Shown: positions 1,566 to 48,475 of the stretch, in pieces
Layout: each line of letters begins with the position of its first letter
Position numbering within the stretch: the first letter of the stretch is position 1
Virus record (IMG/VR): IMGVR_UViG_3300021431_000011
Strand: one strand, 5' to 3'
DNA length: 64,000 bases
Source of the DNA: an uncultured virus (IMG/VR IMGVR_UViG_3300021431_000011)
Lineage: Duplodnaviria; Heunggongvirae; Uroviricota; Caudoviricetes
The notes under the pieces: generated by a model
The model's database searches: none
Told to the model about the DNA's origin: nothing
The model's input: only the letters and a program-made list of their open reading frames with translations
Position numbers and translations under genes: made by a program

Positions 1566-1589
1566 CGCATAAAATACCTTTCCTACATT
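1566..1589 (+). promoter_or_regulatory. First copy of the phage promoter-like motif CG-N8-AC-N6-TWWWWT (other CG positions: 2426, 3263, 5896, 6285, 6626, 6946, 7219, 7527, 7705, 8024, 8423, 8769, 9227, 9780, 10046, 10270, 12597, 16385, 19319, 28856, 30983, 32115, 42320; minus strand 48457)
   Basis: Fixed-spacing motif, nearly always intergenic, often just downstream of a terminator and upstream of an RBS or structured RNA. Confidence 0.8.
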
Positions 1590-1632
1590 GAGAGATACAA
1601 GAGGTGTGTCTCATATTTTGAAAGGAGAAAAG

Positions 1633-2049
1633 GTGTTAATTCCGATTAAGTTTCTAGAGTACATGGGGTTTGTAAATGCGGAGATCAGTGAGGAAGAACC
1701 ATCTTCTAAAGATCTTTTGGAGGAGCATCTTAAAGAGTGCATAACTGAGAATGCGTTGGAGCACGTTGATACTGATAAAGCAACCAAGGGAGCACAGAAC
1801 ATCGAATTACTCACAAAGTCGATGGAGCATCTTGAAAAAGCAGAAGCAGAGCGACTTAAAGTCGAACTTCAGCTAGCAGAGGCTCGGAGACGACAATGGG
1901 TCAATTGGGATATTGTGCTGCCTAAAATGGTAGCAATAGGTGTCACAGGTGCCGTGACGGTGTTTTGGTTATGCCTCGAACAAGGTACTCCGATACCAAT
2001 GCGGTTAGTGAAGATGGCATCGGACTTGACTGTCCCACGCGGACTGTAA
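1633..2049 (+). CDS. Coiled-coil membrane protein
   Basis: GAAAGGAG RBS before GTG 1633; helical charged body, C-terminal hydrophobic segment. Confidence 0.65.
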   Translation: MLIPIKFLEYMGFVNAEISEEEPSSKDLLEEHLKECITENALEHVDTDKATKGAQNIELLTKSMEHLEKAEAERLKVELQLAEARRRQWVNWDIVLPKMVAIGVTGAVTVFWLCLEQGTPIPMRLVKMASDLTVPRGL

Positions 2050-2058
2050 AAACTCTAG

Positions 2059-2098
2059 AGGTGGTTAGTCAAAAGATTAACCACCTTTTCTTTTTTTT
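2059..2098 (+). terminator. Intrinsic terminator
   Basis: AGGTGGTTAGTC-AAAA-GATTAACCACCT followed by a T-run. Confidence 0.8.
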
Positions 2099-2112
2099 AA
2101 GGATTTTTCAAA

Positions 2113-2400
2113 ATGGAAGAAACGTTGTATATACTTATTAGAGAAAACATAAACCATGGAATTCGATCTTATCAAATTATTGATTACAATACCGACTATG
2201 ATGTTTTAAATAATCAACGCGAGTATTTAATTAACCGCATTTTTGAGCGTGGCGATGGTTGGCTCTCTGAATTTGCATATGATTCATTTGGAAAATCATC
2301 GATTGTTAGATACGCCATGCTTCGGGATACTATTAGAATTTGCTTTTCTGAAGAGAAAAGTGTAGGTATACAATTTAAAATAATAAACCTGACTCATTAG
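2113..2400 (+). CDS. Hypothetical protein
   Basis: ORF with AAGGA RBS. Confidence 0.6.
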   Translation: MEETLYILIRENINHGIRSYQIIDYNTDYDVLNNQREYLINRIFERGDGWLSEFAYDSFGKSSIVRYAMLRDTIRICFSEEKSVGIQFKIINLTH

Positions 2401-2449
2401 TTAACATTTTAGATCTAAATGAGTTCGCCAATTTTACCGCCTCTTATAT

Positions 2450-2541
2450 GAGAAGAATAGTAAAATAGTAGGTTAAAAGGGAAACCGCTATCACCGGACA
2501 GAATTACGGGTTCGAGCCCCGTCTATTTTACTATTCTTTTT
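2450..2541 (+). ncRNA. tRNA-like RNA without an anticodon loop
   Basis: 16-bp closing helix 2453-2468/2523-2538, D-arm GGTT/AACC, T-arm ACGGG-TTCGAGC-CCCGT, own promoter motif at 2426. Confidence 0.65.
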
Positions 2542-2575
2542 ATTTTTTAACTTCTATAAGAATAGGAGAGTAGAA

Positions 2576-3235
2576 GTGGAATACCTACCATCATTTATAG
2601 ATGATCTTCATATTGATATTAAGCCATCATTTATTGCCCATTCATTTAGAGATGAACATGATGCTAAAATGATGTACGGATTGCCTAAGGTAAAGAAATT
2701 TCCTATGCCTGATGCAAAACATGTACGATCTGCTATTAGGTTTTTTAACTATGCTAAACCATCTCAAGAACAAGAGTTAGCCAATGCTATTCTAGCTCGA
2801 ATGGATGACTATGGTATCGACCCTGATGATATTAATGTCGGTGATGATAATCGTTTTAAGAAATATTTACAGCATTCATATTTAGCACATCATGGCATTA
2901 AAGGAATGCATTGGGGTGTGAGACGCTATCAGAATTCTGATGGCAGTTTGACAAATGCTGGAAAACAACACTATAATACGAGATTGGCAAACAAAGGTGA
3001 CAAACTTCGATCAGAAGGTTACGATCTATCATCCAATAAATTAGCTTTAACTAAAAAAGAAAGAATAGCAAATTCTATAGCAGTAGGTGCAGGAATGGTT
3101 GCTAGTATAATCACTGAAAATCCTATACCACTTATGAGCACACAAGTAGCTATATTAGCGCAACATAAACGCAATCGCAAAGCAGTTTTAGAATCTATAA
3201 AACGTGAACGTAATACCAAAATTAAAGGTTCATAA
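2576..3235 (+). CDS. HHGIKG-tag protein with an extra N-terminal domain
   Basis: MEYLPSFID leader; YGLP..KKFPMPDAKHVRSAIRFFN domain; internal LAHHGIKGMHWGVRR. Confidence 0.8.
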   Translation: MEYLPSFIDDLHIDIKPSFIAHSFRDEHDAKMMYGLPKVKKFPMPDAKHVRSAIRFFNYAKPSQEQELANAILARMDDYGIDPDDINVGDDNRFKKYLQHSYLAHHGIKGMHWGVRRYQNSDGSLTNAGKQHYNTRLANKGDKLRSEGYDLSSNKLALTKKERIANSIAVGAGMVASIITENPIPLMSTQVAILAQHKRNRKAVLESIKRERNTKIKGS

Positions 3236-3329
3236 AAATTTGAAAACTTTTAGATTCATTTTCGCAGAAAAAACTCCTGCTCTTATAGCAAGAGTCCAAA
3301 AGGGACTTAACTATTGAGAGGAGTTGTAT

Positions 3330-3644
3330 ATGAGCGGGACGGCTATTCCAGCATATAACCATGACGATCGAAATCATCAGTTTATCTGGCATGTGTTGGC
3401 TCATAAGCTGACGAAGGAAGACTTCGAGGCAATTCAGTTGGCCCTCATCGAGCGCGAGGACGATCACAAAGCGATTGACAATACGCAGGTGGCGTTCTAT
3501 GAATTCGATAATGGATCTATGATGCAGCCTCGTCCTGTTCCTGAATCTTATAAGGAGAAGGCACATCGCTATGCAGACTGGTCATGCGCAATGGATATAT
3601 GCATGATCATCAGCAAGTATGCGGATTTTTTCTATAGTAAGTAA
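3330..3644 (+). CDS. Hypothetical early protein
   Basis: Promoter motif 3263, GAGGAG RBS, terminator at 3661. Confidence 0.7.
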   Translation: MSGTAIPAYNHDDRNHQFIWHVLAHKLTKEDFEAIQLALIEREDDHKAIDNTQVAFYEFDNGSMMQPRPVPESYKEKAHRYADWSCAMDICMIISKYADFFYSK

Positions 3645-3660
3645 TAAATGGCTTTTGAAA

Positions 3661-3698
3661 AAGGATTGTGAGGTCGAAAGACTTTACAATCCTTTTTT
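3661..3698 (+). terminator. Intrinsic terminator
   Basis: AAGGATTGTGAGGTC-GAAA-GACTTTACAATCCTT plus T-run. Confidence 0.85.
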
Positions 3699-3731
3699 CT
3701 TTTTACCATACTTTATTTTTTAGGAGGAATT

Positions 3732-4472
3732 GTGGAGTATCTTCCCACTTTTAGTGATCAATTAGATGTGGATTATATTTCACATCATGGTATTAAAGGA
3801 ATGCATTGGGGTATTAGAAGATACCAGAATCCTGATGGAACATTAACGGATGCTGGAAGAAAACACTATGCTGTTCGAGAATCTAAAGGTAGTTTTTTAG
3901 ATCTCAATCGAACTTTTATGGATGCCGATTTAAAGAAAGCAAATGAAAAAGGCGGACATGCTAATAGAGATGTCGTTTACAATCAGGCAATTAAAGCCCT
4001 TAAAAACGATCCAAAAATAAAAGCTGCAGAAGATGATTGTAAGAAGTCTGCAAGAGAAGCCTATGCTGCATATGCAGATTTATATAACAAAAAAGCTGCC
4101 GAACAAGGGGTCGATCATCGTCTTGATCCGAAAACTTTTAACTGGTATAAACAAATAAATGAATTAGATTATGATGTAGACATGGCAGTATGGGACGCAC
4201 GTGGAAAAGAAGCTGAAAAATGGTATAATGCACAAGATCGTCATGAGAATAATGTTGATAAATTAATGAATGCTTATGAGCAGGCTGAAAGTCGTTTTAT
4301 TAAGCAATATCATAATGCGGTTTTGACTGATATTCCAAATGACGGATCAAAGCAAGCTGTTAAAAGAATATTGGACCGTTATGGCGAGTTAAACACATTC
4401 GATTTTACTGAATCGCTTGACACAGATGGTCCGGACTATGGTTGGTCTACATATAATTTATTCGATGTTTAA
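3732..4472 (+). CDS. HHGIKG-tag protein, variable C-terminus
   Basis: MEYLPTFSDQLDVDYISHHGIKGMHWGIRRYQN; AGGAGG RBS. Confidence 0.8.
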   Translation: MEYLPTFSDQLDVDYISHHGIKGMHWGIRRYQNPDGTLTDAGRKHYAVRESKGSFLDLNRTFMDADLKKANEKGGHANRDVVYNQAIKALKNDPKIKAAEDDCKKSAREAYAAYADLYNKKAAEQGVDHRLDPKTFNWYKQINELDYDVDMAVWDARGKEAEKWYNAQDRHENNVDKLMNAYEQAESRFIKQYHNAVLTDIPNDGSKQAVKRILDRYGELNTFDFTESLDTDGPDYGWSTYNLFDV

Positions 4473-4601
4473 TAAAAAGAGCACTTATTGTTAACTAAAA
4501 CACTCTTACAAAACCCCAGGTAAACGGCTTGTTAAAAAGCGTTTTTAGAGCTTAAAAATTGACAAACGACTAATTACCCATGAAGTTTGGTGATTTTGAT
4601 T

Positions 4602-4973
4602 ATGTCATATGATAGAGATGGCGATATTTTTAAGCTTCATAATGCAGGAGTCTCGGATATGAAACTTTCAGAGTTTTATAAATTGTCTAAACAACGAATT
4701 TGCCAAATTATTTTTGAGCAACGTCGTAGACATAGAAAAGGTAACCCCGATATTCCACAAATTGATACCATGTGCAGAATTCTTGGTTGGAGAGAAAGCG
4801 ATAGAGGAAAACTCCAATCAATTTTACACAAGAACGGATACACTTCGTATGATGATAAATGGCGAGATTTATCCTCGGATGATATTTTAGCCATACCTTT
4901 GTTGGGGCATTCTGCTATGAGTGTCATATGGCTTGCTCAAAACATGGATGACGAAACGGATTCGACTAAATAG
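4602..4973 (+). CDS. HTH plus RNA polymerase alpha-CTD-like protein
   Basis: N-terminal HTH (LSEFYKLSKQRICQII); C-terminal L.KNGY...DLSSDDILAIPLLG resembles alpha-CTD/HhH. Confidence 0.55.
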   Translation: MSYDRDGDIFKLHNAGVSDMKLSEFYKLSKQRICQIIFEQRRRHRKGNPDIPQIDTMCRILGWRESDRGKLQSILHKNGYTSYDDKWRDLSSDDILAIPLLGHSAMSVIWLAQNMDDETDSTK

Positions 4974-4987
4974 GATTTGGATATTCA

Positions 4988-5173
4988 ATGGTACTTTTAG
5001 TTATTAGCATCTTAATGTCTATCTTTATAGACGCTTCGCTTAAGGTAATTAGTTTTATGAGTGCGTATTCGAGATATACGAGTTCTGCATATTTGAAATT
5101 TATTGGAGCGCAAATTGTTATTAGCATAGTCGAGCTATTTAGTATTGCATTGTTGATAGTTAAGTTAGGATAG
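4988..5173 (+). CDS. Small membrane protein
   Basis: Two hydrophobic segments. Confidence 0.5.
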   Translation: MVLLVISILMSIFIDASLKVISFMSAYSRYTSSAYLKFIGAQIVISIVELFSIALLIVKLG

Positions 5174-5195
5174 TAAAGAGAGGGAGATAAAGATT

Positions 5196-5858
5196 ATGGA
5201 GTATCTTCCGACTTTTATCGATCAATTAGATGTAGATTATATTTCACATCATGGAATTAAAGGAATGCATTGGGGTATAAGAAGGTATCAGAATACTGAT
5301 GGATCGTATACTTCTGCTGGTAAAGCCCGATATAATGCTAATCAATCGAATGGTAAGCGATCTTTTTCGAAATCTAAAGCTGCGAAAATTGCTGCTGGAG
5401 CGGCAATAACAGCGGCAGGTGTTGCTGCCTTAGCATATATGAATAATTCTGATTTGCCAACTATATCTGATAAAATGGCTGAAAAAGCAGTTAGCAATTA
5501 TTGCAAGAGGACTAGAAAAGCTGCTGGAGATTTGTATGACGAAACGGTAGATACTTACAATGCTTGTATAAAGGCTTTTGACGGTGATTGGCCTAGTATA
5601 GATGCGAAAACGTGTAGAGCAAATGCTCGACAAGTTCGAAAAGATGCAAATGATATGTTTCAGGCTCATTCTAAAAGTCGTATACCATTTGTCGATAAAG
5701 CTTGGCGTAATAGTGCAGGAACTTCTCGACGAAGTAAAGCTCGTAATGATATGATTAGAACCGACGAAGCGATTAGCAATTATCGTGATTCTATGCTAGA
5801 CTATGCTGATATTTACGATAGTATGGCTAAAGAATTAGATCGTCGACGTGGAAATTAA
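5196..5858 (+). CDS. HHGIKG-tag protein, variable C-terminus
   Basis: First ~36 codons nearly identical to 3732..4472, then unrelated. Confidence 0.8.
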   Translation: MEYLPTFIDQLDVDYISHHGIKGMHWGIRRYQNTDGSYTSAGKARYNANQSNGKRSFSKSKAAKIAAGAAITAAGVAALAYMNNSDLPTISDKMAEKAVSNYCKRTRKAAGDLYDETVDTYNACIKAFDGDWPSIDAKTCRANARQVRKDANDMFQAHSKSRIPFVDKAWRNSAGTSRRSKARNDMIRTDEAISNYRDSMLDYADIYDSMAKELDRRRGN

Positions 5859-5959
5859 TTTATGATAAATGAATGGGAAAGGTCATGGAGTAATTCGCAT
5901 ATTTTACTTCTTTCTATATAGGATTGACATTATTGTCAAAGACATGAAAGGAGTAGAGT

Positions 5960-6229
5960 ATGGACGACAAGGAGAACTCTGTGGAGAGGGCTTATCGCCT
6001 TATGGAGGAGTGCGACGACACTGTCGAGTTTCTTCGCGGTTGCGAGTTGGATATTCAGGAGCAGATCTCGAAGGCTGAGGAAGAGCTGAAGAAGATCGAT
6101 TCCCATATCCAGAAGCTTCACGAGGAGCTTGAGGAAGTGCGCTCAAGCAAGATGGATGAGCTGTACACCAAGATGGCTCTCCAGATGTTCGTCAGGTCCG
6201 GAGGTGGACTTGACATGATGATCAATTAG
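5960..6229 (+). CDS. Acidic coiled-coil early protein
   Basis: Promoter 5896, GAAAGGAG RBS, G/C-ending codons, terminator at 6237. Confidence 0.75.
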   Translation: MDDKENSVERAYRLMEECDDTVEFLRGCELDIQEQISKAEEELKKIDSHIQKLHEELEEVRSSKMDELYTKMALQMFVRSGGGLDMMIN

Positions 6230-6341
6230 TATATTTGGGGCTGGAGGTCGTAAGATTTCCAGCTCCTTATATTTTTGCCCATCTCGCTAAAATTACCTTT
6301 CTTATTATAGGAAAGGTTGGAAACAAGAGAAAGGCATTATC

Positions 6342-6521
6342 ATGGCTAAGATGAACAAGGTTCAGAAGGTTAGGCTCGTTGCAGAGATCAACCTTCTCAG
6401 AGGAGTTTGTCGCCTTGCTGCAAGGCATTACAAGGCGGAGGGGAATCTGACAAAGGTTAGGCACTGGAACGACCTTGCGTATAAGGGAGATGTTCTTTAC
6501 GGAATAGCCACAATGGCATAA
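6342..6521 (+). CDS. 59-aa early protein (MAKMNKVQKVRLVAEINLL...)
   Basis: Promoter 6285, GAAAGG RBS; below the ORF-track cutoff. Confidence 0.7.
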   Translation: MAKMNKVQKVRLVAEINLLRGVCRLAARHYKAEGNLTKVRHWNDLAYKGDVLYGIATMA

Positions 6522-6676
6522 GGCATAATTGGACAACCGTCCAAAAGAGAAGTTTATGTATAGAAAGTTTATACATGGACTTTCTCTTTTTCGTTATATT
6601 TATCTTCTATAAAAATTTTTGTCTTCGCATATTTTACTGCACATAATATGAGAAAGGAGCAAGAATAGAGGAGATT

Positions 6677-6886
6677 ATGAACAATCTTGGATTATTTGGA
6701 ATAATTGTTGTAGGAACAATGGTCGGGAATCGCATGTGCGATATAGCAGATTATATTTGTAAAAAGCGTAGAAGGGCTAAGGCAGTAGCCGAAGCAAACA
6801 AACGCGGAGGTCAACAATCTGCTCGTATAGAAAGTGATATGTATACTATTGAAGAATTAATTAAAAAGTATGGAGATTTGTTGTAA
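6677..6886 (+). CDS. Small protein with N-terminal hydrophobic segment
   Basis: Promoter 6626, GAGGAG RBS. Confidence 0.7.
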   Translation: MNNLGLFGIIVVGTMVGNRMCDIADYICKKRRRAKAVAEANKRGGQQSARIESDMYTIEELIKKYGDLL

Positions 6887-6997
6887 AAATCTAAATTTGC
6901 TCCTTTCTTTTTTGTCATATTTACCTTTTGTAAAAATTTTTGCCTCGTTAAATTTACCTTTTGTATTATAAGAAGGGCGCTAGAAGGAGCGATAAAA

Positions 6998-7162
6998 ATG
7001 AAAAAGAACAAATGTGAAATTTGTGGTAAGTATAATGGCAAGGTTTTTAAGAGCGACATATTTGGTAAGGTGCATTTGTGTGATAAATGCATTAGAGAAT
7101 ATGGAGGTGTTAAACGAACCATTGAAAGTTACGAGTTGGGCGATGTTATTTTGGTTAAGTAG
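6998..7162 (+). CDS. 54-aa zinc-finger protein
   Basis: MKKNKCEICG...HLCDKC (CxxC...CxxC); AAGGAG RBS; promoter 6946. Confidence 0.7.
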   Translation: MKKNKCEICGKYNGKVFKSDIFGKVHLCDKCIREYGGVKRTIESYELGDVILVK

Positions 7163-7265
7163 CGTAATAAAAGCGCCCTTCTTTTTTACCATTGATTATT
7201 TTTTTTTTACAATTTTTTCGCAGTTTTAACTATTCATATAATGAGGTCAAGAAAAGGAGACTTAA

Positions 7266-7466
7266 ATGAGTAACAAAGGTTGGATCATTATTGGAACAGT
7301 GATTAGTTACATGATTGTTAAGGCGATGACTGATGAGTTGAAACATGAGCGAGAAAAACAAGAAACAATGCTTATTGAAACGACTACGAGATCGTTGACA
7401 AATGCATTCATAAAAGACTTGGAAGATAAAAATAATGTTAGGCCAGAATTGAGACTTGTTAAGTAA
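7266..7466 (+). CDS. Small membrane-anchored protein
   Basis: Promoter 7219, AAGGAG RBS, N-terminal TM. Confidence 0.7.
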   Translation: MSNKGWIIIGTVISYMIVKAMTDELKHEREKQETMLIETTTRSLTNAFIKDLEDKNNVRPELRLVK

Positions 7467-7550
7467 ATTAATGTTCTTAGACCTCAAGTATAGACGCTGC
7501 TTTTACAGGGCGTTTATATTTTTCTTCGCCATAATAACCATTCATATAAT

Positions 7551-7691
7551 GAGGAAGAGGAGTATAAACCCCGGCAGGCTTAGGTGTCTTACCACTGCGC
7601 GGAGCCCTAAGTTAGGTCGGACAAATAGTTCAATGGTAGAACGCCGATCGATAATGACGGAGACTCAGGTTCGAAGCCTGAAACTTCCTTT
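7551..7691 (+). ncRNA. tRNA-like RNA with degenerate anticodon and acceptor arms
   Basis: TA-GTTC-AATGGTA-GAAC D-arm, TCAGG-TTCGAAG-CCTGA T-arm, closing AGGAAG/CTTCCT, promoter 7527. Confidence 0.6.
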
Positions 7692-7761
7692 ATATTTTTG
7701 CCTTCGCTAAAAATACCTTCTTTAATATAAGAAAGGTTGGACCTAGTAGAAAGGTACAAAA

Positions 7762-7938
7762 ATGATGTCAGAGAAGTTTATGAAAGTAACAACGGGTCTG
7801 CTAGTTACGACTATCATCAGCGGATTCGTGGTGAGCAAGTTTGCGCCACGAATTGGCGGTACGATAGCCTTGACGAGCTACATGTTGGCTGGAGCAACGT
7901 CTTTGGCCGGCGCAGTTTGCGCTTTCAAGGAGATCTAG
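7762..7938 (+). CDS. 58-aa two-TM membrane protein
   Basis: MMSEKFMKVTTGLLVTTIISGFVVSKF...; GAAAGG RBS; promoter 7705. Confidence 0.7.
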   Translation: MMSEKFMKVTTGLLVTTIISGFVVSKFAPRIGGTIALTSYMLAGATSLAGAVCAFKEI

Positions 7939-8075
7939 CCAAAAGGAGAAGTCTATGTATAGAAAGTTTATACATGGGCTTTCTCTTTTTCGTTATATTT
8001 ACTTTTTGTAAAAATTTTTGCCTCGTTGAAATTACCTTTCCTTATATAAGAAAGTCACAAACAAAGGAGATCATA

Positions 8076-8336
8076 ATGGCTACAAACTGTATTGTGAATT
8101 GCACGATATTTCGTGGAGCTGAAAAAGAGGTTAGTGAGAATATTGCAGAAAAGATTTTTGACAATTTTATAGACGCTTTCGCTTGGCTAGAGAACTTTTT
8201 AGACGAGCGATACAACGACTTTGAAGTGTCAGAAATCCGTAGAGCAGGTTTTCTTGACGAAACTATAGAACTTTCGAGATGGGATGAAGATCACAATTAT
8301 TGGTATACTGAGCTGTATGAAGTTGAACTTGTATAA
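8076..8336 (+). CDS. Acidic small early protein
   Basis: AAAGGAG RBS before ATG 8076; promoter 8024. Confidence 0.7.
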   Translation: MATNCIVNCTIFRGAEKEVSENIAEKIFDNFIDAFAWLENFLDERYNDFEVSEIRRAGFLDETIELSRWDEDHNYWYTELYEVELV

Positions 8337-8476
8337 GTAATTGAGAGAAGTCGATGTATAGAAAGTTTATACATGGGCTTTCTCTTTTTCGTTATATTTA
8401 CTTTTTGTAAAAATTTTTGCCTCGTTGAAATTACCATTCCTTATATAGGAAAGTAAAACTATTCAGGAGGTACAAA

Positions 8477-8683
8477 ATGAGTTTTTATAGTGTTTATGGC
8501 TATGCAGACAATGACTGTGGATGGACTGAAGATTTCAGCAATCTCGAAGATGCTAAGAATCGTCTTTCGGAGATTATGGCAGAAGACGAGATTACTGATA
8601 TTACAGAGACAGAAGGCGGCGAGAATAGCATAGTGCATTACAAGACAGAAGACGGATACAACTACGGAATTAGTTTGTTCTAA
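8477..8683 (+). CDS. Acidic small early protein
   Basis: AGGAGG RBS; promoter 8423. Confidence 0.7.
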   Translation: MSFYSVYGYADNDCGWTEDFSNLEDAKNRLSEIMAEDEITDITETEGGENSIVHYKTEDGYNYGISLF

Positions 8684-8817
8684 CCAAAAAGAGAGGTCAA
8701 CGTATAGAAAGTTTATACGTGGGCTTTCTCTTTTTCGTTATATTTACTTTTTGTAAAAATTTTTGTCTCGCTAAAAATACTATTCCTTTTACGAAGCTGA
8801 AAAGAAAGGAGAATGTT

Positions 8818-9177
8818 ATGAAATGCATTTATTGGGGAATTTTCGTTCCAAATTCTGGTGGAAAACTCGATAAGGTTGTGATATTTCAACATGTGACATA
8901 CGGTTTCAAAACCGAGTTTCCAGATGAGTTAGAAGGAAAATCGGCCGACGTTAAAGTTGTTGGCTATGGTAACAATGGCCAAAATGAAGCATATTTGGTT
9001 GAATTGCCAACATGGACAAAACAATATTACGGAGGTTCTTCGATTAAACATATAACTCTATCGGTAGCTTATGGGGGAAAACCTGTAGAAAGTCAATATT
9101 TGGATTTTGAACCTATTGACGAATTTGTATTGAACGGAATTTTCGGATATTTTGACGAAACAGGAATTCATCTATAA
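8818..9177 (+). CDS. 2H phosphoesterase family protein
   Basis: Two HxT motifs (QHVTY, KHITL); AAAGGAG RBS; promoter 8769. Confidence 0.7.
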   Translation: MKCIYWGIFVPNSGGKLDKVVIFQHVTYGFKTEFPDELEGKSADVKVVGYGNNGQNEAYLVELPTWTKQYYGGSSIKHITLSVAYGGKPVESQYLDFEPIDEFVLNGIFGYFDETGIHL

Positions 9178-9273
9178 ACAGCTTTATATAGGCCTTGTTA
9201 GAGTTTTAACAAGGCTTTATATTTTTCGCAATTTTAACTCATACTATATAAGATGGGTTAAGATTGGAGATTT

Positions 9274-9564
9274 ATGAAATACGAAATAAAAATTGCATGG
9301 TATTTATCAAAAAATTTACCAGTAATCGAACAAACTATTGGGTTTTGCAATAACAAAAAGAAAGCTTATAGATTGATTGTTGGTATAGCAAAAACGATTG
9401 CTAAGTATCAAACAATTGATTACAACTGTATAGAATTAAAAAATTGTAAACGAGGTGGTATATTTGGAAAGATTGCTATTATTGAACACTTAGATAAAAT
9501 GCAAAGAAAGTATGGTCCGTTTTACACCCACCCATTAGTATTGGGAAAACCCAAAAACTTTTAG
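9274..9564 (+). CDS. Basic hypothetical protein
   Basis: Promoter 9227, GGAG RBS. Confidence 0.6.
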   Translation: MKYEIKIAWYLSKNLPVIEQTIGFCNNKKKAYRLIVGIAKTIAKYQTIDYNCIELKNCKRGGIFGKIAIIEHLDKMQRKYGPFYTHPLVLGKPKNF

Positions 9565-9613
9565 CAAGTTGATATTTAACTTGCTTTTAGTTTTTTACGT
9601 TAGGAGATGTGTT

Positions 9614-9790
9614 ATGATAGATGAACAGAAAAAACTTAAAAAGATTCTCAATGATATTCAAGAAAAACTTACTCATTATCCTTCTATAGTGGATGAAGAT
9701 CCAAACCAAGATAAATATTATTTAGAGATTTTACCATTAACAAAATCTGAAATGCAAGCGTTAGAAAAACTTATATCTTTGCAATTTTAA
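9614..9790 (+). CDS. Hypothetical protein
   Basis: AGGAG RBS before ATG 9614. Confidence 0.55.
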   Translation: MIDEQKKLKKILNDIQEKLTHYPSIVDEDPNQDKYYLEILPLTKSEMQALEKLISLQF

Positions 9791-9811
9791 CTTGCGCTTA
9801 TATAGGAATCT

Positions 9812-10231
9812 TGTAGCGGACCTAGGTGGTATGAGGGAGACTAGGCAAAGAGGAATCGACAAAGGTCGAGCAGTTGATCTCATAGAAAGAAAAGAATTCG
9901 ATGGTATCAAAATTAATATCGTAACCGAAGCGAATGTATTCTGGATGATTCTTGAGCATGGAGAAGGATTGCCTATGCCAATACATATTCAGTAGTCTGT
10001 TCCGAGTATAGACGCCGCTTTTATAGGGCGTTTATATTTTTGCCTCGCCAAAATTACTGCATATATTTTAGAAAGGGAGAGAAACTAAGAGATCGTAGAG
10101 CCATTGCTGGTGAAAACCCAGCCATCTATGCGAACGGCCACCTGTAGTCAGCATAGACTCGTCCCTTTTACTGTAGTGGACCTAGGTGGTATGAGGGAGA
10201 CTAGGCAAAGAGGAATCGACAAAGGTCGAGC
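9812..10231 (+). repeat. 60-nt structured direct repeat (9812-9871, 10172-10231)
   Basis: 59/60 identity; hairpins CCTAG/CTAGG and TCGAC-AAAG-GTCGA. Confidence 0.9.
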
Positions 10232-10398
10232 GGTAAATCCGTGGGAAAAACAGGTATTTATTTTTTTCTCGCAAAAATTACGTTTCATATAATGAGATGG
10301 AGTAGAGTAAGAATGTAGCAGGTAAACAGTGCTTGTTATATTTTTATTGCTGCTCAAAATTTTTATGGCCAAAAGTGCCAAGAGAGGAGTTTTGTGGT

Positions 10399-10743
10399 AT
10401 GAAGCTATCAAAAGAGATTATGGATAAACTTCGTGATGCTTGGAAAGATCAAGGCGAGCTTTATCCGTGGACGACCTGTGCAGAGGTTCTTACAGGTATC
10501 ATGGTCATGGAAGGTGAGGAGCAAGATAAGGTCTCTGCGACCGATAAGAAATCGGCCAAGCCGATCTATAAAACTTATGAAGACCTTGCTTATATTTCAG
10601 CAATGGAAGCAACTCGCTGTCATATGTTGATCGATAAGCTTAAGGCCACTATCGATCTTCTTGATGCTCAACAGCAGTACTATGAAGCTATAAGTGCCAT
10701 TGAGCGTGATAATGAGTCGTTCGGATTTGATCTAGATATTTAA
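10399..10743 (+). CDS. Hypothetical protein
   Basis: GAGGAG RBS; terminator ~10755-10795. Confidence 0.7.
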   Translation: MKLSKEIMDKLRDAWKDQGELYPWTTCAEVLTGIMVMEGEEQDKVSATDKKSAKPIYKTYEDLAYISAMEATRCHMLIDKLKATIDLLDAQQQYYEAISAIERDNESFGFDLDI

Positions 10744-10813
10744 ATGTAATAAGAATATGAGAGGTGCTAATAGAATAAGCATCTCTCATATTTTTTACTG
10801 AAAGGTTTGTGCA

Positions 10814-11086
10814 ATGAGTAAAACATGGCTAAGCGAAGACGATATTGACCCATTTGATCAAGCAGCGGTGCGTGCTTACTTGCTAGACATTGAGCGAGAA
10901 TACAACAAAAAACGAGAACAACTCTATTATAAAACTCAATCATATTTTCATCAATCTATATCCAGCGATTACACTAAAGAAGAAGATCTTCATGAAATCA
11001 TTAATGAGTGTGAACGATTGAAGCAGCAACATAGAGATTTTAAAAAATTTGTATCCGATATTAGAGGAACTAAATACATTATTTAA
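10814..11086 (+). CDS. Hypothetical protein
   Basis: GAAAGG RBS. Confidence 0.65.
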   Translation: MSKTWLSEDDIDPFDQAAVRAYLLDIEREYNKKREQLYYKTQSYFHQSISSDYTKEEDLHEIINECERLKQQHRDFKKFVSDIRGTKYII

Positions 11087-12590: not shown

Positions 12591-12649
12591 TATTCTCGCA
12601 ATTTTTACGTTTTGTATAATAGGTTAGGTAGGCATAGATTGAAAAGGAG

Positions 12650-16380: not shown

Positions 16381-16444
16381 CTCTCGCAGAATTAACTCGC
16401 ACTATAATAGGTAGGTATTACAAATACGTTTGAAAGGCGATGCA

Positions 16445-19316: not shown

Positions 19317-19432
19317 TTCGCAAAAATTACCATTCCTTTAATGAGGAGATAGGAGAGTGAAGTACGTTGAGATTATACGAGAAGCTCTCCTTTATATTTT
19401 TCCTCATTAAATAAATCTCTTGAAAGGAGAAA

Positions 19433-20340: not shown

Positions 20341-20624
20341 GTTTATATTTGGTGGGTGTCAGGTTTTGCACAGGAGACTGACATAAAATCCAGAAAGTGT
20401 GTTTGATATTTGGTACTACTCGATCGAGACACTATAGAACCTAGGCTATAGTGGGCTGCTAGTACCGTAGGGGCAACTGGATATTTTTGGAGCCGTATAG
20501 TATGCGAGGCGGTTGAATCCGAGGGAGATTCGTAAAATACGTCCAACTGTATGGGTTTGTACGGCATGACTAGATTGGTGGGGATCTAGTCGTTTTATAT
20601 TCTTGAACAGAAAGCGATTTGGTC

Positions 20625-20816: not shown

Positions 20817-20823
20817 ATAATTT

Positions 20824-20899: not shown

Positions 20900-20910
20900 T
20901 TTATATTCTA

Positions 20911-22172: not shown

Positions 22173-22253
<81 letters not shown>

Positions 22254-28836: not shown

Positions 28837-28924
28837 CTATTAGCATTGATATTTTCGCAAAATTTACTCTTTATTAGTTGACCGGACCAGCAATGGTCAG
28901 AAAAACTCTTGAAAGGAGATAGGA

Positions 28925-30979: not shown

Positions 30980-31092
30980 CCTCGCAACTTTTCCAGCTCC
31001 TTAAGTGAGAGTATTAAATCTCAACAGAAAGGAATCACATGGAAAAGTAATACTTATATTTTTGTACGACAAAAATTAGGAAAGGAAACTAA

Positions 31093-31989: not shown

Positions 31990-32179
31990 AGAGGACTAAA
32001 CTACTGGAATGAATGATATTCAGATTAGAATAATTATATTCTAGTAAATAATCTTAGGATAGCATGGGTGAGTCTAGAACGGCTTACCCATGTTTTCTTT
32101 TTGACTGATATTCCCGCAAAAATTACCATCTCTATAATAGGCAGAGAGCATAAGGTTCTCTTTACGAAAGGAGATTGTA

Positions 32180-42313: not shown

Positions 42314-42436
42314 TGTCCGCGCAGAAAAAACTTACACTTATATAGGAGGAGTAAGATTTTTCGGATCTTACTCTTTCTATATTTTTTGTATGTTATGCCT
42401 TGTTTATTTTTTTTTTTCGCACTTGAAAGTACAGTA

Positions 42437-42736: not shown

Positions 42737-43277
42737 ACATGCATTTTTAGGAGCGAGTAAATATTCTTGGCTCGGTTATGATGCTGAAAAGTTAAGAGAG
42801 TCATATTTGAGCAATCAAGCTCGATATAGAGGAACTCAGTTGCATGAGCTTGCTAGTCAACTTATTAAATTAGGCGTTAAGCTTCCTGATACTCATCAAA
42901 CGCTTAATTTGTTTGTTAACGATGCTATTGGCTATCGAATGCAATCTGAGCAAATTTTATATTATTCCAATAATTGTTTTGGAACTGCTGATGCTATATC
43001 CTATAAAGAACGTGATAAGAAACTCAGAATTCACGATCTTAAGACCGGAGTAACCCCAGCATCTATGAAGCAGTTGTATATTTACACAGCATTATTTTGC
43101 TTAGAGTATGCTATGGATCCACATCAAATGGACATAGAACTTCGTATTTATCAGTCAGATGATGTCGAAATTGAGATCCCTGAAACAACAGATATTTTGC
43201 AAGTTATGCAACAGATTCGCAGTTTCGACATGATTCTGAATGAACTTCGAGAAGAGGAGGAAAATGCATGGATGTAG
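42702..43277 (+). CDS. PD-(D/E)XK (Cas4/RecB-like) exonuclease
   Basis: GT.LH, E, GTADAI, IHDLKTG, QL.IY. Confidence 0.8.
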   Translation: MNFNKHFDLEGKHAFLGASKYSWLGYDAEKLRESYLSNQARYRGTQLHELASQLIKLGVKLPDTHQTLNLFVNDAIGYRMQSEQILYYSNNCFGTADAISYKERDKKLRIHDLKTGVTPASMKQLYIYTALFCLEYAMDPHQMDIELRIYQSDDVEIEIPETTDILQVMQQIRSFDMILNELREEEENAWM

Positions 43278-46030
43278 ACGAACGTGAGTATGCGTCATAT
43301 TTGATGCATTATGGTACTCCTCGTCATTCTGGTAGGTATCCGTGGGGTTCTGGCGATAATCCTTATCAGCGTAACGCTAATTTTAGGTCATATGTTCTAG
43401 ATCTTAGGCATCAAGGAATGAGCGATGCTGAAATTGCACGTGGCATGGGAATGACCAAGAACGAATTAGTGGCTGCTATGTCTCAAGCTCGTGCTGAGAA
43501 TAGAGCAGAAGATGTTGCTGAAGCTAAACGGCTTATAGCTAAGGGATATTCTCAGTCAGCAGCAGCTCGTCGTATGGGCATTAATGAATCGCAAGTACGA
43601 AATCTGCTTAAGGAAGATATTCAAGATCGAGCGAATCGTTCTGCTGATACTGCCGAATTGCTTAAGCGAGAGCTTGAAGAGCATGGGGGTTATATTGACA
43701 TCGGTCGTGGGTCAGAAGAGTATCTTGGTACTACGCAATATGTTCTAAAAAATGCCGTGGCTCAGCTTCATAACGAGGGTTACGAAATCCATAACGTTAA
43801 GGTACAACAAGCTGGAACAGGCAAAAACACGACTGTTCAAGTATTATGCCCTCCCGGTACTCCATGGGTAGAAGTTGCTAACAACAAGGGTGATATTCGG
43901 TTGGTTAATGCACCATATGATCCAACCAGTAGCACTGGCAGATCAATGCTTGGACTTGAAAAACCGGTTGGCATTGATCCAAAGCGTGTCATGATTCGGT
44001 ATGCGGATGATGTTGGTCCTGATGGCGGAAAGGGTATTGAGAAAGACGGCGTAATCGAGCTTCGTAGAGGTGTTGATGACATATCTTTAGGAAAAGCTAA
44101 TTACGCACAGGTTCGTATTAATGTTGGCGATACTCATTATTTAAAGGGCATGGCAGTTTATGGTGATAACATGCCAGATGGAGTAGATGTCATATTTAAT
44201 ACGAATAAGCATCGCGATACTCCTATGATGGGGACTAAAGACAATACCGTTCTAAAAGAAATGAAACGAAACAAAGAAACTGGCGAAATTGATTGGGATA
44301 ATCCATTTGGCGCCACTATAAAAACCGAAGGCGACACGAGTACCAGTCTAAAACTTGCACAAAGATATTATGTAGATAAGAACGGCAAAAAGAAATTATC
44401 GGCAATTAATGTAGTTAATGAAGAAGGCGATTGGGAAACTTGGGCACCCACATTGTCAAGCCAGTTCTTATCTAAGCAAACGCCAGCTATGGCAAAACGT
44501 CAGCTTAAGATTGCATCTGATGCACGTCAAGCAGAATATGACGACATAATGACATTAACCAATCCGACTGTAAAAAAGAAGCTATTACTTGAATTTGCTG
44601 ATGAATGTGATTCTGCAGCTGTTCATTTAAAGGCTGCTGCTTTGCCTAGACAGTCTAGTCATGTCATATTACCAGTACCAGGAATTAAAGAAAATGAGAT
44701 ATTTGCTCCAAATTATCGAAATGGAGAGCAAGTAGCTCTTGTTCGACATCCTCATGCGGGTCGCTTTGAGATTCCTCTCCTTACGGTAAACAACAATTCT
44801 AAAGAAGCCGCAAGAGTTATGGGAAAAAATTCACCAGATGCGGTTGGTATCAATGCTAAAACTGCGGCCATATTATCTGGCGCAGATTTTGACGGCGATA
44901 GCGTTCTTGTTATTCCTACTAAAGGTACTAATCTTAAAGCGCAAGCTCCTCTTAAAGGGCTTAAAGACTTCGAGCCAAAAGATGCATATCGTGCATATCC
45001 TGGAATGCCTGAAACATCTAAGAAAAATGGTTTTAACAAACAGATAGAAATGGGTAAAGTTTCTAATCTAATTACAGATATGACCTTAAAAGGTGCTAAT
45101 GACGAAGAACTTGCTAGAGCGGTTAGGCATTCTATGGTTGTAATAGATGCCGAAAAGCATAATTTGGATTGGCGACGTTCTGCTAGAGAAAATGGCATAT
45201 CTGAACTTAAGAAAAAGTATCAAGGCGGCCCCAATTCTGGAGCATCAACATTAATTTCTAAAGCTAAAAGCATGGCTGTAGTTCCTGACCGTAAGGAAAT
45301 ATCGCCCGATAAACGTACTGGCGAACGGCGTTATATTCCTACTGGCAAAACGCATAAAGATAGAAAAACTGGTAAAGATGTTCTTAATACTACAGTAACC
45401 ACCAAAATGTTCGAAGCAAAAGATGCCAATGATTTGTCTTCTGGCACCGTTATGGAGAACATATATGCCGCTCATGCTAATAAGCTTAAAAGTCTTGCTA
45501 ACCAAGCCCGAAAAGAAGCTCTTTCTTCGGAATCTGTGCCATATTCTGCATCTGCTAGAAAAGCTTATGCTAAAGAGGTTGCTTCTTTGGATGGAAAGTA
45601 CAAACTTGCTCAACGCAATAAACCATTAGAGCGTCAAGCACAGCTTATTGCAGAAACTGTGGTAAAAGCTAAAATAAGAGCTAATCCAGAACTTAAAGAT
45701 GACAAAGATCATTTGAAGAAAGTTCAGCAACAAGCTCTTAGAGAAGCTAGAGAACGTACTGGTGCTAAGAAACGTGATTTCGACATTACCGATAAGGAGT
45801 GGGAAGCTATTCAAGCTGGAGCAATACATAAGACTCGCTTAGAAGCATTGTTGGCTACTGCTGATAGCGATCGTGTTCATGAGCTTGCTATGCCTAAAAC
45901 TACTCGTACTGTCAACCCTAATGTCATATCTAGAGCTAAAGCTATGCAGGCATCTGGTAAGACTCAAGCTGAAATCGCAGATGCTCTTGGTGTTAGTACT
46001 ACTACAGTCAATACAATCCTGCGGAATTAG
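43268..46030 (+). CDS. Single-chain two-barrel (DFDGD) RNA polymerase with HTH domains
   Basis: RHPHAG..E.P and GADFDGD catalytic motif; two N-terminal HTHs and one C-terminal HTH; N-terminal LMHYG..WG tag variant. Confidence 0.75.
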   Translation: MDVDEREYASYLMHYGTPRHSGRYPWGSGDNPYQRNANFRSYVLDLRHQGMSDAEIARGMGMTKNELVAAMSQARAENRAEDVAEAKRLIAKGYSQSAAARRMGINESQVRNLLKEDIQDRANRSADTAELLKRELEEHGGYIDIGRGSEEYLGTTQYVLKNAVAQLHNEGYEIHNVKVQQAGTGKNTTVQVLCPPGTPWVEVANNKGDIRLVNAPYDPTSSTGRSMLGLEKPVGIDPKRVMIRYADDVGPDGGKGIEKDGVIELRRGVDDISLGKANYAQVRINVGDTHYLKGMAVYGDNMPDGVDVIFNTNKHRDTPMMGTKDNTVLKEMKRNKETGEIDWDNPFGATIKTEGDTSTSLKLAQRYYVDKNGKKKLSAINVVNEEGDWETWAPTLSSQFLSKQTPAMAKRQLKIASDARQAEYDDIMTLTNPTVKKKLLLEFADECDSAAVHLKAAALPRQSSHVILPVPGIKENEIFAPNYRNGEQVALVRHPHAGRFEIPLLTVNNNSKEAARVMGKNSPDAVGINAKTAAILSGADFDGDSVLVIPTKGTNLKAQAPLKGLKDFEPKDAYRAYPGMPETSKKNGFNKQIEMGKVSNLITDMTLKGANDEELARAVRHSMVVIDAEKHNLDWRRSARENGISELKKKYQGGPNSGASTLISKAKSMAVVPDRKEISPDKRTGERRYIPTGKTHKDRKTGKDVLNTTVTTKMFEAKDANDLSSGTVMENIYAAHANKLKSLANQARKEALSSESVPYSASARKAYAKEVASLDGKYKLAQRNKPLERQAQLIAETVVKAKIRANPELKDDKDHLKKVQQQALREARERTGAKKRDFDITDKEWEAIQAGAIHKTRLEALLATADSDRVHELAMPKTTRTVNPNVISRAKAMQASGKTQAEIADALGVSTTTVNTILRN

Positions 46031-46048
46031 TGTGAGGGGGGTTATATT

Positions 46049-46351
46049 TTGGATACAGTTTACATGCTTACTACTAAAGACAATCCATACAATCCCTTTA
46101 CACACTATGATGAATGGGATACATGGGATCGGTTTCATGGGTGGCATATAGAACCTGATGGCAGTATTAAGTTAGGCTATTATACAAGTGCATATTTAGG
46201 AAGAGTGGCTGCAACATCTGACGAAATTAGTCCTGCACAGTATACTAGGGCCATTAATGACGCTATCGATGAAATCGTTAGCTACAACATCACTGGCAAT
46301 TATGTTAAAGTACAAGAATCCGATTACAAAAATTGGAAACCAGTAACGTAG
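46049..46351 (+). CDS. Conserved-type phage hypothetical protein
   Basis: MLTTKDNPYNPF..DEW...GY....YL.R..AIDEI. Confidence 0.7.
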   Translation: MDTVYMLTTKDNPYNPFTHYDEWDTWDRFHGWHIEPDGSIKLGYYTSAYLGRVAATSDEISPAQYTRAINDAIDEIVSYNITGNYVKVQESDYKNWKPVT

Positions 46352-47090
46352 GTCATATTTTAGGGGTGCTCGCTACTTAATGTAACGGGCACCTCTTATA
46401 AGATAGGGTCATATTTGTCTATTTGTCATTAGAGTTGTAATTAGAAAATTACTTGATCTTATTCAAATTTTAGGTCATATTTGACTATTTGATCTAAAAT
46501 GCTTTAAAAACATTACTTAATTACATTCGAATTTTATGTCGTATTTGACTATTTTATGTAAAATACATTAAAACGCTGCTTAATTACGTCCAAATTTTAG
46601 GTCATATTTAGCCTATAATAGTTAAAAAATCATTTACAATAAAAATTTTGAATAATAACGATACTATGCCTATATACGGGTCATATTTGACTCATTTTAA
46701 TGCTCAAAAACGGCCTTATATGGGGCTTCTATATAGGCCTCTATATAGGGCTTCTATATGGGTCATATTTCAGCAGTTAAAACTCCCTTATGGTCCTACT
46801 AGTATACTGAATAGCTAACTATCCATAGTAGTTTACTACTGTAATAGATCTATATAGGGTCATATTTCAGCAGCTGAAACTCTACTTATGATCCTACTGT
46901 ATACTGAGTAACTAACTACTCATAGTAGTTTACTACTGTAATAGTTCTATATAGGGTCATATTTTAGTAGTTAAACTTACTTATGATCCTACCGTATACT
47001 AAGTAACTAACTATTCATAGTAGTTTACTACTGTAATAGCTAACTATTCGCACTAGTCTACTACCCCAATAGCTATCACGGGTCATATTT
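46351..47090 (+). repeat. GGTCATATTT iterons with 63-66-bp and 97-bp tandem units
   Basis: Copies at 46351, 46407, 46473, (46537), 46600, 46679, 46761, 46858, 46955, 47081. Confidence 0.9.
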
Positions 47091-47242
47091 TGAGAGCCAA
47101 CCCCCTATGCCAAAAATTGATGAATATCAGTAATATTCATAAAAATCGCAAATAGACCAAAAAACTGATCTTTTTTGCCTTTTTCTGATATAAAATTGCT
47201 AATAGGGGGGAGGGGATGCCAAAAATTTGGATGCCTCCAAAT

Positions 47243-47251
47243 CGCCGCACT
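47243..47251. other. Probable cos site (CGCCGCACT)
   Basis: Between GGGGGAGGGG and CCCCGGGG, upstream of small terminase/HNH; resembles the 9-nt CGCCG..CT 3' overhangs recalled for related actinophages. Confidence 0.6.
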
Positions 47252-47481
47252 CTCTAAAAATTCCCCGGGGGTACTATTTAAGGACTTCTTTCCATACTTT
47301 TTCGCGGAGCTCTCTTTGTTTTATCCTCTCCGACTTATGTGCCTATTGCATTTTCTCGATATTCCGCTCATCGAGATCTCCTTTCAAGAGTCTTAGCTGA
47401 TAAAAGTCTCTTAAAACTTAGAGAGTTCCACGAAGAAGTATGGGAAAACTTACCAAAAAGTATATTTAAATTGGAGAAAAC

Positions 47482-47811
47482 ATGGCAACAAAACGAGAAA
47501 AGCCAATTGGAACTTCTAAAAGAACTTCTCCACCAGCTCGATCACTTGAAAATCGAGAGAATCAGCTTATAGAAAAAGCTTATGCGCTTGTCGAAGAGCG
47601 TATAGACAATGGTACAGCCTCTGCTCAAGAGATTGTACATTTTTTAAAGATGGGTGCTGCCAAATCTCAGCTTGAAAAAGAGAAGCTTGAAGCAGAAGTG
47701 CAGCTTCTTGCTTCTAAGAAAGAGATTATCGACGCCAATAAGCAAAGTAGCGAAGCATATGCTGAAGCACTTGCGGCATTTAGATCATATAACGGAAGTT
47801 CTGATGAATAA
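47482..47811 (+). CDS. Probable terminase small subunit
   Basis: First gene after cos; RENQLI..A..L.E.RI..GTASAQ...HFLK. Confidence 0.6.
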   Translation: MATKREKPIGTSKRTSPPARSLENRENQLIEKAYALVEERIDNGTASAQEIVHFLKMGAAKSQLEKEKLEAEVQLLASKKEIIDANKQSSEAYAEALAAFRSYNGSSDE

Positions 47812-48217
47812 AATTAAATCGTATCATGAGATGCTACAATTTCCAACATTAGAAGAACGATTTCATTATCTTAGACTATTCGGGCATGTTGGCGAAGATA
47901 CGTTTGGTTTTAACAGATACGTTAATCAAGCTTTTTACACAAGTAGACGTTGGCGATCTATACGTTCGGAAGTCATAATCCGAGATGGTGCATGTAATCT
48001 TGCACATTCAGATTATCCGCTGTTCGGACGAGTTCACATTCATCACATCAACCCGGTTTCATTAGAAATGTTTGAGAATGAGGACCCATTATTGTTCGAT
48101 TTGGATAACCTTGTATGTACAGATGAGCAAACCCATAGAGCTATTCATTATGGCGATGAATCTTTACTTCCACAAGATTACAAACCAAGAACACCGGGTG
48201 ATACAAAATTGTGGTAA
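47804..48217 (+). CDS. HNH endonuclease (terminase-associated)
   Basis: W..IR..VI.RD, HHINP, NL, H.AIH. Confidence 0.85.
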   Translation: MNKIKSYHEMLQFPTLEERFHYLRLFGHVGEDTFGFNRYVNQAFYTSRRWRSIRSEVIIRDGACNLAHSDYPLFGRVHIHHINPVSLEMFENEDPLLFDLDNLVCTDEQTHRAIHYGDESLLPQDYKPRTPGDTKLW

Positions 48218-48283
48218 GGCAAAAAAAATAATAGATAGTAAATACAGAAAAAGAACGTAGACGAATTTTTTAGATTCCGATTC

Positions 48284-48400
48284 TTACAAGAACAAAACGC
48301 CTAATCTATACATTTTGTATACTACTCCACCGCATAATCCTACAGATAGAACTACTCCAGTAGCCAATACTGAGTATAGTATTACGTCGTTTTTATCCAT
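48284..48400 (-). CDS. 38-aa hydrophobic peptide
   Basis: MDKNDVILYSVLATGVVLSVGLCGGVVYKMYRLGVLFL; GAAAGGA RBS; minus-strand promoter motif at 48457. Confidence 0.7.
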   Translation of the reverse strand: MDKNDVILYSVLATGVVLSVGLCGGVVYKMYRLGVLFL

Positions 48401-48475
48401 TATAATTTCCTTTCCCAAATCGTCTACGTTCTCATATAATTAATAGTATTTTTAACGAAGTAAGAAAGGATAACC

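Follow-up and report, generated by a model that had tools for sequence, protein, structure and literature searches.

The 64,000-nucleotide (nt) stretch of an uncultured virus of the Caudoviricetes (IMG/VR IMGVR_UViG_3300021431_000011; hereafter the window, meaning this whole stretch) carries a short signal repeated many times ahead of its genes, and the question raised by this locus is which RNA polymerase reads it. An original prediction, made from the letters alone, counted about 25 copies of a promoter-like motif unlike that of sigma-70 and assigned them to a polymerase of the phage itself, a protein with helix-turn-helix (HTH) domains and a DFDGD motif. Our analysis leads to a similar view: the 24 strong copies are probably promoters of a YonO-like two-barrel RNA polymerase encoded by the phage, a protein of 920 amino acids (aa), and would serve its early and middle genes. 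Because the motif is found in phages of unrelated bacteria that share the polymerase gene, it is most likely the promoter of that enzyme.

The consensus of the motif is yT-CGCaaAWWTWAC-yNtyyn-TAWWAT-RRG, a fixed signal of 27 bases; purines remain enriched as far as about position 32. Iterating a weight matrix on the window itself gave 23 strong matches (score of at least 14) on the + strand and one on the − strand of the whole window, whereas 20 dinucleotide shuffles gave 0.25 on average, and never more than 1, for the two strands combined. A loose regular expression modelled on the original prediction gave 21 matches on the + strand and 4 on the − strand. A matrix built only from 57 sites of five other phages recovered 11 of the 23 + strand copies at threshold 8 (shuffles 2.3) and 7 at threshold 12 (shuffles 0.45). 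Seventeen copies lie within 1.5–10.3 kilobases (kb), exactly the number predicted, six further + strand copies are spread over 12.6–42.3 kb, and the single − strand copy begins at 48457 (Table 1). When the window was scanned with its weight matrix, no + strand match was obtained past 42320 and the structural genes were without a copy, the best match within them scoring 8.1 on the − strand at 52489. The spacing is rigid: 16 + strand matches combine a 7-base gap with a 6-base spacer, and every other gap or spacer tried yields 0–1. The predicted number of copies, their absence from the structural genes after 48.5 kb and their near-invariant spacing were thus all borne out, and the example quoted at 10270 reads exactly as given. 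These counts establish that the motif exists, that it exceeds chance expectation, that it favors one strand and that its spacing is rigid. The signal is contiguous, fixed in spacing and present in many co-oriented copies, as expected of promoters of a phage polymerase.

Table 1. Motif copies and other features of the window. Coordinates of a copy start at the C of CGC; scores are from the window weight matrix.
Feature	Position	Strand	Score	Remarks
Motif copy	1566..1592	+	26.8	CGCATAAAATAC-CTTTCC-TACATT-GAG
Motif copy	2426..2452	+	31.3	Upstream of a tRNA-like small RNA; 16-bp end-to-end stem from motif position 28
Motif copy	3263..3289	+	25.5	
Motif copy	5896..5922	+	25.8	
Motif copy	6285..6311	+	35.7	
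Motif copy	6626..6652	+	27.1	Transcript with 12-bp 5'-3' panhandle from position 26
Motif copy	6946..6972	+	30.3	Transcript with 12-bp 5'-3' panhandle from position 25
Motif copy	7219..7245	+	29.4	
Motif copy	7527..7553	+	30.9	Upstream of a non-coding stretch, 3' part tRNA-like
Motif copy	7705..7731	+	30.5	
Motif copy	8024..8050	+	32.9	In 110-nt cassette
Motif copy	8423..8449	+	32.5	In 110-nt cassette
Motif copy	8769..8795	+	27.9	Degenerate hexamer TTTTAC; in 110-nt cassette
Motif copy	9227..9253	+	18.4	Lowest score; hexamer may be shifted by one base
Motif copy	9780..9806	+	22.5	TGC replacing CGC
Motif copy	10046..10072	+	24.9	
Motif copy	10270..10296	+	34.0	Example of the original prediction
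Motif copy	12597..12623	+	29.2	After TGATATT
Motif copy	16385..16411	+	30.4	Weak second match at 16370 (11.3)
Motif copy	19319..19345	+	36.6	
Motif copy	28856..28882	+	25.1	Degenerate hexamer TTAGTT
Weak candidate copy	30983..31009	+	10.4	Cross-phage matrix also detects it (threshold 8)
Motif copy	32115..32141	+	34.3	Kept in the nearest record, G001
Motif copy	42320..42346	+	24.8	Before the endonuclease-exonuclease-polymerase operon; followed by a 20-pair hairpin and T-run
Motif copy	48431..48457	-	24.9	Only − strand copy; 38-codon open frame downstream
Putative single-chain two-barrel RNA polymerase	43268..46030	+		920 aa; proposed reader of the motif
Many small genes	0.2-12 kb			Each with its own upstream signal and terminator
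Five tRNA genes	20.8-24.8 kb			
Replication genes	29-46 kb			Primase-polymerase fusion, annealing protein, helicase, endonuclease, Cas4-like exonuclease
Structural genes	from 48.5 kb			Connector, large terminase, portal, protease-capsid, tail, tape measure

Five of the early copies are contained in a terminator-plus-promoter cassette of 110 nt, the repeats of which are 66–97% identical, and because they are part of this cassette they are not independent of one another. Such repetition would suit a functionless residue of a duplicated intergenic cassette, which we consider extremely improbable: the remaining 19 copies have unrelated flanks, and in phages whose polymerase is only 38–52% identical the motif is kept but the flanks are not.

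The strongest evidence came from comparison among phages. Five named relatives carry 7–15 copies of this motif at identical spacing, on the gene strand only, with gene-strand and other-strand counts of 12/0 in 1706 (host Lactococcus), 15/0 in FP_oengus (Faecalibacterium), 9/0 in Circum (Arthrobacter), 14/0 in ReqiPoco6 (Rhodococcus) and 7/0 in contig89, an oral siphovirus of an oral high-GC host; these counts were made with per-phage matrices, which matched shuffles at most 0.1 times. Each of the five has a gene for a homologue of the 920-aa protein with its DFDGD motif and flanking HTH domains. In each of them the motif precedes small genes located after the structural module and, within the stretches examined, copies fall in the non-structural genes. 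The elements conserved across lineages are (C)GC at positions 1–3, C at position 12, the hexamer at 19–24 and the purines at 25–27. Phages of the same hosts without the polymerase gene gave no match (SK1, FP_Lugh) or one (Jasmine), and the annotated early promoters of SK1 are of the usual TTGACA-17-TATAAT form. The reverse test started from an exact-pattern scan of IMG/VR, which gave at least 143 stretches; from the matches listed, ten contigs were picked (five multi-match, five single-match) and nine were examined, eight of which encode the protein at E ≤ 1e-169. The ninth, without a protein match, is a 66%-complete fragment.

The polymerase gene itself is associated with a copy of the motif. 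Of 80 loci retrieved for homologues of the gene, 67 extend at least 1400 nt upstream, and 43 of these 67 carry a + strand copy 800–1350 nt before the gene, at a conserved place ~0.9 kb away; the controls gave 12/67 on the − strand, and 4/67 and 2/67 inside the gene. The 43 loci comprise 37 distinct sequences with polymerases 47–92% identical and a GC content of 31–57%, and the copy at 42320 is the counterpart of this conserved signal in the window. The nearest record is a 48.7-kb fragment that spans only the copies matching 32115 and 42320. Full-length homologues at 38–52% identity are present in 250 phage records (Arthrobacter, Gordonia, Streptomyces, Lactococcus, Faecalibacterium and others), and the gene order endonuclease-exonuclease-polymerase-small open reading frame (ORF), adjoining one genome end, is the same in the relatives. 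Motif and polymerase gene are thus found together, and the phages compared that lack the gene also lack the repeated motif, the pairing expected of a promoter with its polymerase. Conservation across host phyla and the two-way association with the gene are established by these comparisons, and the predicted link to the DFDGD/HTH polymerase is well supported by them (relatives, same-host controls and the 8/9 reverse test).

The phage group concerned was described by Koert et al. (bioRxiv 10.1101/842583) as a supercluster that includes 1706, FP_oengus, Arthrobacter cluster AK and others and has the HTH-flanked 'putative RNA polymerase' as a signature gene, and its members have the same protein family and the same gene order as the window, which represents a longer, low-GC (~38%) relative from animal gut that carries tRNA genes. 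In the part of that preprint available to us, the HTH-domain protein has an HHpred match to an RNA-dependent RNA polymerase family, is among the few genes conserved across the Actinobacteria/Firmicutes phage group, and is the sole DNA-binding entry on the conserved list. Our literature searches gave no paper that describes the motif; the word 'promoter' is absent from the available text of the preprint and from the Gordonia, Arthrobacter and Microbacterium phage papers, supplements aside. Neither the repeated motif nor a link between it and the polymerase gene appears in that available text of Koert et al.

The geometry of the motif is not that of a sigma-70 promoter. In a scan for sigma-70 sites covering the window outside 20001–24000, only the 6946 copy had its own hexamer in register (TTGCCT-18-TATTAT, 9/12 bases), and two further copies were overlapped out of register. 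The motif copies do not carry a TTGACA-like hexamer 16–18 nt upstream, in line with the absence of a TTGACA element stated in the original prediction, and the distance from the conserved upstream CGC to the hexamer is 15 nt, where sigma-70 geometry would call for 17 nt plus a hexamer. Canonical sigma-70 sites occur at shuffle level in three 20-kb stretches (76 vs 72.9, 67 vs 64.9 and 52 vs 56.6). At hexamer position 2, where a −10 box has its key A, A is present in 12 of 18 seed copies and 27 of 37 conserved copies, and the FP_oengus-type hexamer CTTTAT has T; at position 6, T is present in 17 of 18 seed copies.

These data bear on the possibility that the copies are host sigma-A promoters, in which the hexamer would be the −10 box, transcription would start 6–8 nt downstream, and CGC...AC would bind a phage factor replacing the −35 element. 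That factor, activator or repressor, could be the 920-aa protein in a purely DNA-binding role, or else a small HTH protein. The hexamer is TATAAT-like in 5/6 lineages, and motif position 31, the sigma-70 start point, is a purine in 18/18 seed copies, so that the host polymerase could use the hexamer; both points weigh against a dedicated phage enzyme. Most phages' early genes use the host polymerase, some early copies have TTGCCT 18 nt ahead of the hexamer, and a second small protein with two HTH domains is encoded at 25690–25989. On the other hand, the upstream element and its spacing are conserved over hosts of two phyla with differing promoters, the A of hexamer position 2 is not conserved, and the spacing is far more rigid than the range generally known for sigma-70 promoters. 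An activator for every early promoter would itself need to enter with the virion, and the conserved list of Koert et al., in its available text, has no DNA-binding protein besides the polymerase-like one. Reading of the motif by the host enzyme is, in our judgment, unlikely.

The position of the transcription start is relevant to the same choice. We slightly favor a start next to the hexamer, as originally predicted. Conserved purines directly follow the hexamer, and among the first six copies of 1706, five continue from the hexamer straight into the Shine-Dalgarno-like AGAAAGAAGG, with a start codon 18–19 nt past the hexamer. A start 6–8 nt downstream, as the host enzyme would use, would cut off this ribosome-binding sequence, and the placement of AGAAAGAAGG is the best indirect support for a close start. 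Perfect end-to-end stems of 12–16 base pairs (bp) are found in four predicted transcripts, with 3' arms that abut a T-run and 5' arms that begin at position 25 (6946), 26 (6626), 26 (48457, − strand) and 28 (2426). The original prediction had placed paired 5' arms near position 25 at 6970, 8793, 12621 and 28880; this holds for 6970, which belongs to the 6946 copy, and fails for the other three, where an ungapped search gave no arm of at least 8 bp. Compensatory change in the panhandle stems is seen only from position 30 on, and because positions 26–29 are invariant among those copies the arms place only position 30 in the RNA; a host-type start would thus be compatible with the panhandles, which require only that the RNA begin at or before position 30. 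For most copies, the local leader folds were no better than those of shuffles. These apparently self-closing short transcripts (6626–6910, 6946–7190, 2426–2545 and, on the − strand, 48457–48270) enclose a small ORF or a tRNA-like RNA.

Many copies of the conserved promoter are followed by a hairpin and TATATTTTT. These hairpins start at positions 13–34, with modes at 23 and 27, and may just as well terminate read-through from upstream, in which case the promoter's own RNA would escape termination by starting within the arm. Terminators of the phage group (early region, L007-L086) consist of a characteristic hairpin followed by (T)TATATTTTT, and 25 terminator-like sites were counted in 1–20 kb of the window compared with 11.1 in shuffles. 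Copies at middle genes are preceded by TGATATT instead.

A hairpin promoter resembling those of N4 was considered and rejected, because the arms do not covary: the motif's own arms form 3.46 base pairs and cross-paired arms likewise 3.46 (permutation p = 0.55). The pyrimidine spacer and the purine tract give the surroundings of the hexamer a dyad-like look. This partial dyad, with pyrimidines before the hexamer and purines after it, together with the HTH proteins encoded in the window, would fit an operator or another non-promoter protein site, for early shut-off, replication or packaging, with transcription starting elsewhere. We hold this to be very unlikely, since the dyad lacks covariation in the comparison just given, 23 of the 24 copies are co-oriented with the genes, and no alternative promoter signal is enriched. 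Moreover, the terminator hairpin of the preceding gene comes directly before the motif in the repeated early cassettes, and copies are closely followed by a ribosome-binding site.

The 920-aa protein has two N-terminal HTH domains at about aa 44–126 and a C-terminal HTH resembling sigma-70 region 4 at about aa 890–919. Its core contains R493-x-P-H, DFDGD (aa 540–544) and SNLITDM (aa 599–605). Its Pfam matches are to HTH families only, and it matches PHROG 4291 ('RNA-dependent RNA polymerase') over its full length. The family is large, with at least 8000 proteins at E ≤ 1e-10 and 1159 clusters (50% identity) at E ≤ 1e-30. In an alignment of 76 diverse relatives, SGADxDGD and R-x-P-H are invariant in 76/76, the F of DFDGD is retained in at least 90%, and parts of SNLITDM are invariant. 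The distance from R-x-P-H to DxDGD is 47 aa here and 43 aa in YonO, which has DNDGD. When the profile of the 76 was compared with a 5-member alignment of the YonO family, the match had a probability of 76% (E 2.2e-5, 132 columns), with the three motifs aligned in order over about aa 467–606 only. On our reading the protein would be an active polymerase that binds the motif. A search of the ESM Atlas, which has no model of the protein, returned its own family only. The small ORF at 46049–46351, directly after the polymerase gene, belongs to PHROG 4303 and has no Pfam match; a small ORF is found at the same position in 1706, Circum, ReqiPoco6 and FP_oengus, and its product may be a cofactor. The two-HTH protein at 25690–25989 (99 aa; HTH_23/HTH_7 plus a sigma-70-region-4-like domain) has no BLASTP similarity to the polymerase.

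Besides the TATAAT-like hexamer and the purine at position 31, several further points speak against assigning the motif to this enzyme. The matrices behind the counts were trained on the same genomes that they scored. The family-level match to YonO appears moderate, comparison of the profile with the single YonO sequence gave nothing (probability 1–2%), and a sequence search of the PDB returned HTH matches only, plus a chance-level match to 8h2n (the P23-45 tape-measure polymerase, E 0.53). The upstream element could instead be read by other small HTH proteins, which each phage encodes (here the one at 25690–25989). The replication module has the polymerase gene at its far end, a location that would be odd for an early function unless the protein is packaged, and the evidence for packaging is one GenBank label, that of the 1706 homologue orf75, annotated 'structural protein'; the ReqiPoco6 label was copied by similarity. 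Finally, YonO, the sole characterized enzyme of this branch, serves late genes according to the available part of its description (PMC5467207), whereas the window signal is found at early and middle genes and not at late ones.

If the motif is read by the phage polymerase, the following mechanism can be envisaged. The fused HTH domains would recognize the upstream part, where roughly one turn of the helix separates CGC (1–3) from WTWAC (8–12), the A/T-rich hexamer (19–24) would melt, and RNA synthesis would begin in or just after the purines at 25–27. With such a start the whole signal would be one contiguous unit of 27–30 bp, as in T7-type promoters. The enzyme would serve the 17 single-gene early cassettes, each closed by a hairpin and TATATTTTT, and also the middle and replication genes, its own operon included; the structural genes, which lack a copy, must be expressed in another way. 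Because the early genes would all depend on the signal while the polymerase gene itself lies behind one copy, the first enzyme would probably have to be delivered by the virion, and we regard the case for such delivery as evenly balanced. More tentatively still, the system might be self-contained and of the ancient two-barrel type: one 100-kDa chain with its own sigma-like HTH modules, a 27-bp promoter, no host factor, entry with the virion and control of the early and middle programme, kept across phages of Actinobacteria and Firmicutes.

The window has a GC content of ~38%, its genes are nearly all on the + strand, and the sequence is present in animal gut metagenomes; a search of sequencing runs with 1500–11000 returned DNA runs and no RNA run. 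An Rfam scan of the window gave only the five tRNAs above threshold, so that no known RNA family anchors a 5' end. The non-coding, promoter-driven stretches 2450–2545 and 7555–7690 contain a T-arm-like GGTTCGA(A/G)CC, and neither ARAGORN nor Rfam called a tRNA in them. Downstream of the copies at 9780 and 10046, an 87-nt direct repeat of 85% identity (9812–9898 and 10172–10258) may be a duplicated small RNA. The 38-codon frame behind the − strand copy (48275–48391, − strand) is hydrophobic-looking, with a 13-bp 5'-3' panhandle and a T-run at its end. Overlapping this copy, the + strand carries a sigma-70-like TTCCCA-17-TATAAT at 48412–48440, 35 nt before the first structural gene, which is a candidate late promoter. 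The 25-aa DUF7211 motif (HHGIKGMxWGVRR) occurs in six paralogous proteins (gene starts 235, 2576, 3732, 5196, 49117 and 50089), two of them encoded within the head-assembly module, and a seventh gene, starting at 29816, matches DUF7211 more weakly. The N-terminus of the polymerase (YLMHYG...WG) is DUF7211-like by eye, with no match to the Pfam model. Nine exact + strand copies of GGTCATATTT, 56–127 nt apart, occupy 46351–47090, a gene-poor stretch between the post-polymerase small ORF and the packaging-side genes that corresponds to the genome end of the relatives; they might serve for terminase binding or as an origin.

For single-chain two-barrel polymerases of the YonO type no promoters are so far known, and a large family now has a sharp, conserved candidate, which makes polymerase activity, promoter recognition by the HTH domains and choice of the start site testable in cultivable hosts (Lactococcus, Arthrobacter, Streptomyces). 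If the system is indeed self-contained as sketched above, it would provide a T7-like orthogonal pair of polymerase and promoter on a cellular polymerase fold and offer a direct model of promoter finding by a minimal two-barrel enzyme. Our reading would also explain the early programme of this phage group in hosts of two phyla. A working pair would be a candidate orthogonal expression system for Gram-positive bacteria.

T7-type promoters are contiguous signals of fixed length, with an upstream recognition part, a TATA-like stretch by the start and a purine-rich initial transcript, and they occur in many copies on one strand. The T7 polymerase is a right-hand, Pol I-like enzyme whose fold is unrelated to the two-barrel one. 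The window motif is T7-like in layout, with a predicted start site.

Among two-barrel enzymes, the available part of the YonO report (PMC5467207) describes a single-chain DNA-dependent RNA polymerase of the Bacillus prophage SPbeta that transcribes a late operon from one start site, the promoter sequence not being defined. YonO and the window protein are alike in having R-x-P-H 43–47 aa before DxDGD, followed by SN-x-IT, in single chains of 839 and 920 aa; they differ in that the HTH-bearing ends of the window protein have no profile match. Thermus phage P23-45, as described in the accessible text of bioRxiv 10.1101/2022.12.01.518664, has virion and non-virion two-barrel polymerases and conserved promoter motifs upstream of its pre-early and early genes, the host enzyme taking over the late genes; among its relatives the motif accompanies the enzyme and is absent where the enzyme is absent. 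That system resembles ours in combining a phage two-barrel enzyme with its own motif at early genes, and was approached by the same comparative logic. It differs in that its starts were mapped experimentally and its virion enzyme forms a fusion with the tape measure protein; no HTH fusion is described in that text, and the window protein matches it in sequence no better than by chance (E 0.53). In the crAss-like phage phi14:2, gp66 is a virion-packaged, rifampicin-resistant two-barrel polymerase for early genes, and middle and late genes go to the host enzyme; the portion of that report available to us (bioRxiv 10.1101/2020.03.07.982082) gives no common promoter motif for the crAss-like virion enzyme. 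As far as these available texts go, both phi14:2 and P23-45 resemble the window, in which the motif stands at early and middle genes and is lacking at the structural genes.

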